Shown here piece after piece: positions 25,306 through 27,240 of a DNA stretch of 32,000 nt. The notes below the pieces were generated by a model, which saw nothing but the letters and a program-made list of their open reading frames with translations, searched no databases and had not been told where the DNA came from. The DNA is taken from the NCBI GenBank assembly GCA_002421785.1, contig DIRZ01000002.1, forward strand, positions 30,001 through 62,000, in the 5' to 3' direction. Every line of letters starts with the position of its first letter. Position 1 is the stretch's first letter. The stretch comes from Candidatus Saccharimonadota bacterium (GTDB lineage: Bacteria > Patescibacteriota > Saccharimonadia > Saccharimonadales > Saccharimonadaceae). The position numbers were made by a program, and so were the translations under genes.

Positions 25306-25572
25306 ATGTCAAAACAATGTCAAAGCTGTGGAATGCCCCTACAAACTCGCAAAGCTGGCGATTGCCGCGGCACAGATGCCGACGGAAGCAAAAGTGAGAT
25401 GTGGTGCAAACTCTGTTACCAAGATGGTGCATTTTACACGCCAAACTGTAGCCTCGAAGAGATGAGAGAGATTGTTGACGATGCGCTCAAAGAAAATGGC
25501 AGCGGAAAGCTGATGCGCTGGCTCGCGCAGAAACAACTTCACAGCCTAAAACGCTGGAAAACACCGCGTTAA
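25306..25572 (+). CDS. small zinc-ribbon domain protein
   Basis: 88 aa. CQSCGMP...WCKLCYQDGAF provides two CxxC pairs, and an AAGGGGGA SD lies upstream. Confidence 0.7.
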   Translation: MSKQCQSCGMPLQTRKAGDCRGTDADGSKSEMWCKLCYQDGAFYTPNCSLEEMREIVDDALKENGSGKLMRWLAQKQLHSLKRWKTPR

Positions 25573-26222: not shown

Positions 26223-26224
26223 GC

Positions 26225-26323
26225 CTACTGACGCGCTTCCATGTACACCACAAGGAGGAGAATAATAATCGCCACGACGACGACGACCAGCTCGAGAATA
26301 GTAAAACCACCATGCTTCTTCAT
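26225..26323 (-). CDS. 32-aa prepilin-type (type IV pilin-like) N-terminal signal/TM micro-ORF
   Basis: My own translation of the alternative frame gives ATG AAG AAG CAT GGT GGT TTT ACT ATT CTC GAG CTG GTC GTC GTC GTC GTG GCG ATT ATT ATT CTC CTC CTT GTG GTG TAC ATG GAA GCG CGT CAG TAG. This reads MKKHGGFTILELVVVVVAIIILLLVVYMEARQ*. It has the class III signal pattern: a basic leader, G/F, Glu at +5, and a hydrophobic helix. The stop is 2 nt before the methyltransferase ATG. Confidence 0.45.
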   Translation of the reverse strand: MKKHGGFTILELVVVVVAIIILLLVVYMEARQ

Positions 26324-26382
26324 ACACCTATAGTACTCCCCTCACCAGCTCTTAGGAAATAGTGGTGATGCTTGTGGTTTTT

Positions 26383-26391
26383 TGATATACT
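26383..26391 (+). promoter_or_regulatory. extended -10 promoter element (TGaTATACT) ahead of the ATPase operon
   Basis: TGATATACT lies 27 nt upstream of ATG 26419 and is followed by a GAGAGGGAA SD. No good -35 is present, which is consistent with an extended -10 promoter. Confidence 0.35.
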
Positions 26392-26418: not shown

Positions 26419-27240
26419 ATGCTTCGCACCGTTAAACGAAGAATCATTGCTACCAGTGCGGCCTACTTTGCTATGCTAGTGCTTGCTGTTCCTTTCGCTG
26501 CTGCCATTACCCCTATTTCACAGGGCTATTCCACCGACCAAACCATCCCTGTCGGCTCAATTGTCAGCCTGACACAAGGTTCCACCGATCGTGTGATTGC
26601 CGCCAGTACCACAACCAGCGATAGTATTATTGGTGTAGTCGTTAACGACGGCAGCTCGCCAATCAGCCTCAACTCGGGAGCCACCAATCAAGTACAGGTT
26701 GCCACTAGTGGTGTTGTGCCTATCTTTGTGAGTGACGTGAATGGCGACATTCAGCAAGGTGACCAAATCACTGCCAGCCACATAAAAGGCATCGGCATGA
26801 AAGCCAGCACTAATACAAAAGTCGTTGGCGTGGCCCAAGGCCCCATGACTGGCAAAAACAAGCAAAAAGTGAAAGACGAAACCGGTGAGGAGCAAGAAAT
26901 TACCCTTGGCCAATTACCCGTTCTTGTCAGTGTTAGTTATCATTACAAAACCCCCGACAAAACTATCATCCCCGCCGCGCTGCAAAACGTTGCTAATACT
27001 GTCGCAGGCAAAAAAGTAGACTCCTTGCCCATCATCATCAGCACGGTCATTTTCGTCGTTATGCTCATTACTGTTGTGAGTATCGTGTACGCAATGATTC
27101 GAAGTAGCATTATCAGTGTCGGTCGCAACCCTATGGCGCAATCAGCCGTCTACCGTGATATCATTCAGCTCTCCCTCCTCGTTCTTGCCATTATTGGCGC
27201 GGGCGTCATTGCTATTTACCTAATCTTGACGAGGCTCTAG
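26419..27240 (+). CDS. exported beta-rich protein with a C-terminal two-helix membrane hairpin (first gene of the ATPase operon)
   Basis: 273 aa. The signal/anchor MLRTVKRRIIATSAAYFAMLVLAVPFAAA is followed by a Ser/Thr/Val/Gly-rich domain. The C-terminus reads PIIISTVIFVVMLITVVSIVYAMIRSSIISVGRNPMAQSAVYRDIIQLSLLVLAIIGAGVIAIYLIL. The next gene starts 4 nt after the stop. Confidence 0.7.
   Translation: MLRTVKRRIIATSAAYFAMLVLAVPFAAAITPISQGYSTDQTIPVGSIVSLTQGSTDRVIAASTTTSDSIIGVVVNDGSSPISLNSGATNQVQVATSGVVPIFVSDVNGDIQQGDQITASHIKGIGMKASTNTKVVGVAQGPMTGKNKQKVKDETGEEQEITLGQLPVLVSVSYHYKTPDKTIIPAALQNVANTVAGKKVDSLPIIISTVIFVVMLITVVSIVYAMIRSSIISVGRNPMAQSAVYRDIIQLSLLVLAIIGAGVIAIYLILTRL

Follow-up and report, generated by a model that had tools for sequence, protein, structure and literature searches.

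The window analyzed here is a 32,000-nucleotide stretch of Candidatus Saccharimonadota contig DIRZ01000002.1 (positions 30,001 to 62,000). It contains, on its minus strand, a 32-codon open reading frame (ORF), referred to here as the micro-ORF, the product of which has the N-terminal features of a type IV prepilin. The micro-ORF is positioned between a methyltransferase gene, located downstream on the same strand, and the divergently oriented gene of a 273-residue membrane protein (Table 1). Two nucleotides (GC) separate the stop codon of the micro-ORF from the ATG of the methyltransferase gene. A 252-codon ORF opens at a GTG just upstream of the micro-ORF, crosses the same stretch in the third frame, and continues into the methyltransferase. 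The start codons, the length of 32 codons, and the gap between the two genes, as given by a first-pass annotation of the window, were confirmed by translation of the minus strand. Loci and proteins used for comparison carry L and P numbers, respectively.

Table 1 Features of the micro-ORF locus in the window and of related loci. aa, amino acids; nt, nucleotides; SAM, S-adenosylmethionine; pN/pS, ratio of the proportions of non-synonymous and synonymous differences.
Feature	Location	Strand	Remarks
Micro-ORF MKKHGGFTILELVVVVVAIIILLLVVYMEARQ	26225..26323	minus	32 codons and TAG stop; ATG 26323-26321, TAG 26227-26225
Predicted class III (prepilin-type) leader MKKHGG	26306..26323	minus	putative cleavage after Gly6; Gly-1 invariant in 113 family members
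Predicted mature 26-mer FTILELVVVVVAIIILLLVVYMEARQ	26228..26305	minus	Phe+1, Glu+5, one transmembrane helix of 19-21 residues, polar tail of 4-5 residues
(GTC)4GTG run encoding VVVVV	26273..26287	minus	(GTC)4 26287-26276, GTG 26275-26273
-10-like hexamer TACTAT	26330..26335	minus	6 nt upstream of ATG 26323; aligned with TGnTAcAAT box of relatives
TATACT -10 box of ~280-aa gene/ATP synthase operon	26386..26391	plus	in conserved bidirectional promoter block AGTATAGCAAAAA (micro-ORF strand)
Spurious 5' extension of methyltransferase ORF	26223..26327	minus	GTG 26327-26325 start; off-frame through micro-ORF; pN/pS 2.29
TylF/MycF/NovP-type SAM-dependent O-methyltransferase, 217 aa	25569..26222	minus	Pfam PF05711, E 1.5e-22; no transmembrane segment
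Divergent 273-aa membrane protein	26419..27240	plus	first gene of atpF-like/atpH/atpA/atpG operon; synteny
Zn_ribbon_2 gene	25306-25572	plus	convergent to methyltransferase gene
Coiled-coil protein, 298 aa	27245-28141	plus	ATP synthase b position
TylF methyltransferase downstream of micro-ORF	L165, L166, L168		3 of 6 micro-ORF-selected loci
Convergent LtaS downstream of micro-ORF	L167		
Small unknown ORFs downstream of micro-ORF	L169		140-nt gap
Unrelated SAM methyltransferase downstream of micro-ORF	L170, 3158-3946		
Membrane protein, 202 aa	L005, 5387-5995		also in L085
Full-length type IV pilin, 175 aa	L089, 2131-2658		also in L098, L109, L110

The micro-ORF peptide is composed of the leader MKKHGG, followed across the putative cleavage site by FTILE and by 19–21 hydrophobic residues, a layout that satisfies the prepilin residue pattern. 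The helix is very hydrophobic, with a Kyte-Doolittle mean of 3.37 over residues 8–26. The prepilin-type N-terminus recognized by the first-pass annotation is borne out by the match of the peptide to the Pfam model N_methyl (PF07963; 25.6 bits, E 8e-6), which passes the gathering cut-off of 21.2. Only one ORF of the window combines the motif G[FM][TS]xxE with a hydrophobic stretch of 14 residues, and no such ORF appears in 1000 first-order Markov shuffles of the whole 32 kb, in agreement with the earlier judgment that a chance origin of the signature is unlikely. The peptide extends for 26 residues past the cleavage site and lacks both the full α1 helix of pilins (approximately 53 residues) and their C-terminal globular domain. 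A double-glycine leader of the bacteriocin type was rejected because position −2 is variable across the family of related peptides described below.

To identify the coding frame, 18 distinct DNA sequences were compared in three frames along a core of 22 codons. The proportion of synonymous differences (pS) in the micro-ORF frame is 0.75, which corresponds to saturation, and that of non-synonymous differences (pN) is 0.26. The pN/pS ratios of the other two frames are 0.80 and 2.29, the latter belonging to the frame of the 252-codon ORF. Every synonymous codon for the invariant glycine, phenylalanine, and threonine is used among the 18 sequences. Over the stretch shared by both ORFs, the closest relative, L001, differs from the window by four nucleotides. 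Read as the micro-ORF, three of the differences are synonymous and one changes valine to isoleucine; read in the 252-codon frame, every one of them is non-synonymous. The micro-ORF is intact, with a product of 30–45 residues, in about 16 lineages of Saccharibacteria, in which the methyltransferase is 54–67% identical and the counterpart of the 273-residue protein (the ~280-residue protein in the following) 50–75% identical to those of the window. Judged by this pattern of substitutions, the micro-ORF is a genuine protein-coding gene that is conserved and under purifying selection.

Homologs of the methyltransferase, which all come from Saccharibacteria, are 203–217 residues long, and P0002 begins at the same MAAQRGE. 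Inspection of the DNA of L001–L004 revealed that the long N-terminal extensions of P0001, P0049, and P0065 are off-frame read-throughs of similar micro-ORFs. Because of the length of the homologs, the off-frame nature of the extensions, and the pN/pS ratio of its frame, the 252-codon ORF is, on comparative evidence, an annotation artifact, and the methyltransferase starts at ATG 26222. The first-pass annotation had rightly considered the long N-terminus implausible, as its frame shows no amino-acid conservation, and the relatives, in which conservation of the long frame had been proposed as a counter-indication, keep the small frame instead. Public gene calls at the locus are inconsistent: they contain the wrong-frame extension of the methyltransferase, call the micro-ORF, or leave the gap empty (L171 2276-2501).

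Three origins of the peptide had been put forward in the first-pass annotation. The first, under which the ORF encodes a genuine minimal pilin-like membrane peptide that is co-translated with the methyltransferase, is supported to the limit of what sequences can tell by the purifying selection and by the abutment of the stop and start codons. The second, a 5' remnant of a truncated pilin gene, is rejected because the ORF is intact at 30–45 residues in relatives and the nearest database matches are also 30–50 residues long. A frameshift that splits a pilin-type anchor from a longer protein is rejected as well, since relatives in which the methyltransferase is only 54–67% identical have the micro-ORF intact and no fusion homolog is among the matches listed. 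When an artificial fusion of the peptide and the methyltransferase was used as a query against the protein database, no match covered the peptide part, and the coverage of at most 87% corresponds to the methyltransferase alone. A fused helix-methyltransferase protein is absent from the matches listed (the best of 2489 methyltransferase relatives) and from the top 150 profile matches. The frameshift reading is also countered by the long proteins among the best 150 matches of the exhaustive profile search described below, which are ordinary pilins without similarity to the methyltransferase.

The micro-ORF product belongs to a family of similar small proteins. A profile built from nine micro-ORFs matched 224 proteins in a word-seeded search, with lengths of 30–46 residues for nearly all of the top 120. 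When 1.84 billion cluster representatives were searched with HMMER without an index, approximately 135 of the best 150 matches had at most 70 residues, mostly 30–50. The family contains well over 100 clusters of 30–50-residue proteins. Its members are built from a short polar leader, a GFT(I/L/V)LE site with predicted cleavage after the glycine, one very hydrophobic helix, and a polar tail of 2–5 residues; the predicted mature length is 23–30 residues, with a mode of 26. Gly−1, Phe+1, Thr+2, and Glu+5 are invariant in 113 + 74 distinct members, and the 113 have short, basic or polar leaders. The invariance is in part a consequence of ascertainment, as the members were retrieved by motif or profile. 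In the set collected by synteny, the glycine, phenylalanine, and threonine are invariant and the glutamate is present in 17 of 18 sequences; this set is less search-dependent, yet its scans required a G[hydrophobic][T/S/A] core. The Pfam model N_methyl matches 37 of 41 members, and TIGR02532 matches 35 of the 41 at E ≤ 1. Models of full-length pilins and pseudopilins (ComGC, ComGD, GspG, GspH, PpdD-type) are matched over their first ~25 positions only. Some members carry the automatic names 'prepilin-type N-terminal cleavage/methylation domain-containing protein' or 'PulG/PilE', and the copy of Ca. Saccharimonas aalborgensis is annotated as 'hypothetical protein'. A literature search found no paper on these micro-proteins. 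By sequence similarity, they constitute a family of their own in Saccharibacteria, here called 'headless' prepilin-like micro-proteins, for which the database names are all automatically assigned.

The exact window peptide, with five valines, is called on 104 public contigs, and a variant with six valines (P0128) is present on one. Variants with three, four, or seven valines are absent from the public contigs searched. Other variants of the peptide include a valine-to-isoleucine change on eight contigs and G5S on one. The expectation that the trinucleotide repeat may vary in length in frame is met by the single six-valine variant, but systematic length variation is not seen; the distribution of variants reflects occasional in-frame slippage and not programmed variation.

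The genomic context of the micro-ORF was compared from the side of each of its neighbors. Among 160 loci retrieved with the methyltransferase (~150 distinct), the micro-ORF is directly upstream of the methyltransferase gene in only about nine lineages, scattered over the methyltransferase tree. There, its stop codon overlaps the methyltransferase start in an ATGA or GTGA or is located 2–8 nucleotides from it. The exception is L014, with a gap of 30 nucleotides and a separate methyltransferase promoter. Six distant loci were selected by their micro-ORF, and in all six the divergent gene of the ~280-residue membrane protein is adjacent, followed by genes of ATP synthase b-like, delta, and alpha subunits, while the downstream gene differs between the loci (Table 1). 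All methyltransferase-selected lineages that have the ~280-residue protein gene in the locus have an adjoining micro-ORF; in L017, the methyltransferase gene is 5.6 kb away from it. L024 retains the pair of micro-ORF and methyltransferase without the ~280-residue protein gene. Sampling of three loci from the side of the ~280-residue protein gene yielded one with an uncalled micro-ORF followed by a response regulator gene (L171) and two without a micro-ORF (L172, L173). Because the micro-ORF is retained with a changing downstream gene, and also without the ~280-residue protein gene, it is, as far as gene order tells, an independent gene that is common but dispensable, and neither neighbor is obligatory. 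By the same comparison, its most constant neighbor is the divergent ~280-residue membrane protein, and the methyltransferase is a frequent, translationally coupled downstream gene. An obligate pairing with the TylF-type methyltransferase is rejected, because only ~9 of ~150 distinct methyltransferase loci have the micro-ORF directly upstream and only three of the six micro-ORF-selected loci contain this methyltransferase. A search for deletion scars in sister loci with and without the micro-ORF found their upstream regions not alignable.

No pilus assembly gene (pilB/C/D/M/N/O) is among the called or annotated genes beside the micro-ORF in the loci with gene content listed, and neither pilD nor other pilus genes are encoded in the 32-kb window. 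No full-length pilin was found at the site of the micro-ORF in relatives, where the first-pass annotation had suggested looking for one. The 175-residue type IV pilin of L089, L098, L109, and L110 is encoded elsewhere, ~350 nucleotides upstream of the methyltransferase gene and beyond an opposite-strand gene for a 100-residue membrane protein; two genes of secreted or surface proteins precede it. In UBA1944-type genomes, the inserted gene of a 202-residue membrane protein without an assigned family separates the micro-ORF from the methyltransferase gene, with a 4-nucleotide ATGA overlap with both neighbors in L005. The methyltransferase downstream of the micro-ORF in L170 is of a different class I SAM-dependent type (Methyltransf_23/11/25) and not of the TylF type, which may be a coincidence or a hint of methylation linked to the peptide. 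Genes of an OmpR-type regulator and a histidine kinase with two transmembrane helices and an outer loop of ~45 residues are located directly downstream of the micro-ORF or methyltransferase in L125, L168, and L171 and 3–6 kb downstream in L009, L039, and L024; the pair recurs in L089, L098, L109, and L110.

Two conserved blocks stand out in an intergenic alignment of 15 lineages. One is the bidirectional promoter block with the −10 box of the ATP synthase side (Table 1); the other is an extended −10 box, TGnTAcAAT, which in most lineages ends 6–12 nucleotides upstream of the micro-ORF ATG. In L167, L169, and L170, which have longer leaders, a canonical Shine-Dalgarno sequence (AAGGAGG) replaces the −10 box, as in AAGGAGGGTTATG of L170. 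The micro-ORF is the first cistron behind either signal. Of 130 methyltransferase-first loci (counted over L005–L164), 87 have a −10 hexamer (TATAAT, TACAAT, TATACT, or TATAGT, in many cases preceded by TG) that ends 4–13 nucleotides short of the ATG, compared with 2.6% of random ATGs, and the same tight spacing is found at a genuine pilin gene (L089 2112-2133). Because the −10 box is so close to the ATG, the promoter geometry suggests that the micro-ORF is expressed from a leaderless or near-leaderless mRNA and that such mRNAs are widespread in Saccharibacteria. 'Terminator-like' matches inside the micro-ORF were dismissed as self-pairing of the GTC repeat, and the idea of a riboswitch, or a different RNA element, ahead of the SAM-dependent enzyme was discarded for want of any Rfam match at E ≤ 1.

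The micro-protein resembles type IV pilins and pseudopilins (PF07963/TIGR02532) in its basic or polar leader, Gly−1, Phe+1, Glu+5, and ~20-residue α1-N helix. Typical pilins, however, have more than 100 residues in the mature form and contain the α1-C segment and a globular β-sheet domain, whereas the micro-protein, at a predicted 23–30 residues, ends after the transmembrane helix, lacks Gly14 and Pro22, and is not encoded together with pilus genes. The PilA-N pilins of Geobacter and other Desulfuromonadales (GSU1496-like) are also headless and keep the prepilin signal and Glu+5 (PMC5174107). They are about 60 residues long when mature, twice the size of the Saccharibacteria peptide, possess a full-length α1 helix, and are encoded in a pilus cluster beside the PilA-C gene; the gene downstream of the micro-ORF, in contrast, encodes a cytoplasmic methyltransferase or is variable. 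The smallest accepted pilins, those of the Flp/Tad group (type IVc), have about 40–50 mature residues, and four of the 41 micro-proteins weakly match Flp1_like. Flp pilins, however, carry a G/XXXXEY motif, are processed by TadV/CpaA, and are encoded in tad loci, whereas the micro-proteins have a type IVa-like GFTxLE site and are markedly shorter. Another group of comparable size, the AcrZ, KdpF, CydX, and MgtS class, consists of single helices of 30–50 residues that are often missed or mis-annotated and bind larger membrane complexes; unlike the micro-protein, they do not have the prepilin cleavage/methylation signature. A functional parallel is CIP of Caulobacter crescentus, the N-terminal 17–25 residues of mature PilA, which by themselves suffice to bind a transmembrane helix of a sensor kinase within the membrane and to change both signaling and pilus function (PMC7196804). 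The predicted mature micro-protein is essentially a CIP-like segment. Unlike the micro-protein, which has its own gene, CIP was obtained experimentally as a portion of a true 59-residue pilin.

We consider it probable, with moderate confidence, that the micro-ORF is a genuine gene of the headless prepilin-like family, the product of which is processed by the prepilin peptidase PilD into a helix of ~26 residues that acts within the membrane. The precursor would be inserted into the membrane with the leader on the cytoplasmic side, and PilD would remove MKKHGG after Gly6 and probably N-methylate Phe+1. The product would be a single helix equivalent to the α1-N segment of a type IV pilin without the globular head. 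Being headless, such a peptide most likely forms no filament, and the lack of both a head and a pilus-gene context makes a regulatory or decoy role of a membrane-resident peptide appear likelier than a structural one. Glu+5 would be buried in the membrane, and its invariance suggests that the peptide probably still engages pilin-binding partners, which may be the assembly platform, the peptidase, or a sensor kinase. It would thereby mimic or titrate the membrane pool of pilins, as the N-terminal part of Caulobacter PilA does. In Caulobacter, the first 17–25 residues of mature PilA suffice for signaling to the first transmembrane helix of PleC, and a synthetic peptide impairs pilus function (PMC7196804); intramembrane sensing of PilA by PilS in P. 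aeruginosa is cited in the same paper. Type IV pili and PilD are near-universal in Saccharibacteria and other bacteria of the candidate phyla radiation (CPR), including 62 of 65 Saccharimonadia bins from activated sludge (PMC11623550, PMC6744442, PMC12592800). For the genome studied here, the presence of PilD is taken from this literature, because pilD is not in the window. The methyltransferase is best described, from gene order, as a co-expressed neighbor and not a demonstrated partner, although it, or once the unrelated enzyme of L170, could in principle modify the peptide. The link of the peptide to the kinase with two transmembrane helices is only suggestive, because the regulator-kinase pair is absent from the window. 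With low confidence, we further speculate that the micro-protein is a 'pilin without a pilin', a dedicated, PilD-processed intramembrane signal or decoy that sets pilus dynamics or host attachment by signaling to, or titrating, proteins that sense pilins (the assembly platform, PilD, or the kinase encoded downstream in several lineages) and is possibly modified by the co-translated methyltransferase.

Several observations weigh against a PilD-processed membrane peptide. The gene status and role of the family are deduced from sequence comparison, with the retrieval bias in the motif noted above, and the intramembrane target of the peptide is a conjecture. The window peptide scores only 11.3 bits against NCBIfam TIGR02532, under the cut-off of 16.3, and its helix lacks the Gly14 and Pro22 of classical pilins, which fits a non-filament role but could also indicate that the pilus machinery does not act on the peptide at all. 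The 32-kb window contains neither pilD nor other pilus genes, and the regulator-kinase pair is present in only about six of 16 lineages. The gene is dispensable, being absent from two of the three loci sampled by the ~280-residue protein and missing near most methyltransferase homologs, among them those of the oral Nanosynbacter clade. The TACTAT hexamer of the window is weak, and a consensus sigma-70 scan called no promoter of the micro-ORF there.

Two alternatives accept the peptide as a functional membrane protein. It could be a generic single-pass protein unrelated to pili, one that, like AcrZ, KdpF, or CydX, modulates a different membrane complex, for example the ~280-residue protein and the ATP synthase, its prepilin-like N-terminus being an insertion or processing signal or a relic. 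Many bacterial hydrophobic proteins of 30 residues modulate membrane complexes, and the ~280-residue protein gene is the most constant neighbor (six of six micro-ORF-selected loci and every methyltransferase-selected lineage that has it) and shares the bidirectional promoter block with the micro-ORF. We nevertheless consider this explanation unlikely: a plain anchor has no need for invariant Gly−1, Phe+1, and Thr+2 and a buried Glu+5; genes on either side of a divergent promoter of ~100 nucleotides may stay adjacent by chance or through constraint even if they are functionally unrelated; and L024 has the micro-ORF without the ~280-residue protein gene, with the converse in L172 and L173. The other alternative takes the processed 26-residue helix as a structural minimal pilin, polymerized into a very thin, helix-only filament or serving as a minor pilus subunit (primer, spacer, or terminator). 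The peptide carries the full prepilin signature with the invariant Glu+5, a residue that in pilins serves the registration of subunits in the filament core. Headless truncated pilins of Geobacter do form filaments (PMC5174107), and the pili of Saccharibacteria are unusually thin (PMC11623550). On the other hand, the thin pili of TM7x are lost upon deletion of pilA2 (PMC11623550). The peptide is less than half the length of the shortest described pilins (about 60 residues in Geobacter, 45 mature residues in Caulobacter) and would hardly protrude past the membrane-spanning length. Pilus genes adjoin the micro-ORF in none of about 16 contexts, and several lineages dispense with the gene, all of which renders a structural role rather improbable.

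Three further explanations were considered. As a cis-acting upstream ORF, the micro-ORF would only feed ribosomes to the methyltransferase through termination-reinitiation on a leaderless mRNA, and the peptide itself would be functionless. The ATGA or GTGA overlap, or 2–8-nucleotide gap, to the downstream gene in most lineages fits such a role, as does the fact that the methyltransferase genes of coupled loci have neither a −10 box nor a strong Shine-Dalgarno sequence immediately upstream. The micro-ORF, however, is under strong selection at the amino-acid level with saturated synonymous sites; it is kept without a coupled gene (L167, convergent; L169, 140-nucleotide gap) or before a gene with its own promoter (L014, L171); and most methyltransferase homologs lack it. 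Regulatory upstream ORFs and leader peptides are recognized by weak constraint on the peptide and a single downstream gene, neither of which describes the micro-ORF, and we judge this explanation very unlikely. Type I toxins (of the Hok, TisB, or Fst kind) are small and extremely hydrophobic, and the peptide is typical of them, or of other self-acting, membrane-active peptides, in size and hydrophobicity. They are also patchy and fast-evolving, whereas the micro-ORF shows vertical conservation, keeps its place in the chromosome, and encodes a pilin-specific motif, and the locus contains neither an Rfam family nor an antisense-RNA-like element; a toxin would be most surprising. That the sequence is not a functional gene is hardly conceivable, whether it is taken as an ORF arisen by chance, as what is left of the 5' end of a truncated pilin gene, or as the N-terminus of a membrane-anchored methyltransferase disrupted by a frameshift. 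The overlap with the long ORF, the in-frame trinucleotide repeat, and the one six-valine variant hint at instability, but the signature arose in none of the 1000 shuffles, the ORF has remained intact under selection in about 16 lineages, the matches listed include no fused homolog, and the pilin of the L089 clade occupies a different position.

Type IV pili are central to the episymbiosis of Saccharibacteria and other CPR bacteria, in which they serve host attachment, twitching, and competition. With about half the length of Geobacter or Flp pilins, the micro-protein would be shorter than any pilin-like protein described to date. If it acts as proposed, it would be a natural counterpart of the synthetic Caulobacter CIP and represent a new class of pilin-derived regulator. 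The family provides a testable handle on intramembrane pilin sensing or assembly control in a group of bacteria that has recently been made genetically tractable. Annotation of the locus is systematically wrong in public data, with the micro-ORF missed (L171) or buried under a spurious extension (the window, P0001, P0049, P0065), and the placement of the −10 box next to the ATG is relevant to gene prediction in CPR genomes.

The methyltransferase of the window has NovP, MycF, and other O-methyltransferases as relatives in the PDB. Its gene and the convergent Zn_ribbon_2 gene overlap at their 3' ends by four nucleotides (25569-25572), as they do in L001. The divergent 273-residue protein has no Pfam match, and more than 1400 proteins of Saccharibacteria belong to its family. 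In its AlphaFold model (pLDDT 77), an N-terminal membrane helix is combined with a β-sandwich ectodomain and, at the C-terminus, with a helical hairpin that has SVGRNP as its invariant loop. The predicted ectodomain resembles phage capsid cement and decoration proteins (Foldseek E about 1e-5 to the capsids of Borrelia phage BB1 and T1; PF23982 in homologs). The gene occupies the position where the genes of the ATP synthase a and c subunits are normally located. A fused ATP synthase c subunit, considered because of the GRNP loop, was rejected, as neither Pfam nor PDB sequence comparisons support it and the model consists of a cement-like β-sandwich and a hairpin. At the ATP synthase b position, the window encodes an unusually long, 298-residue coiled-coil protein with repeated QAELEAK-like heptads and no significant Pfam match; the length of the protein at this position ranges from 189 to 313 residues between lineages.

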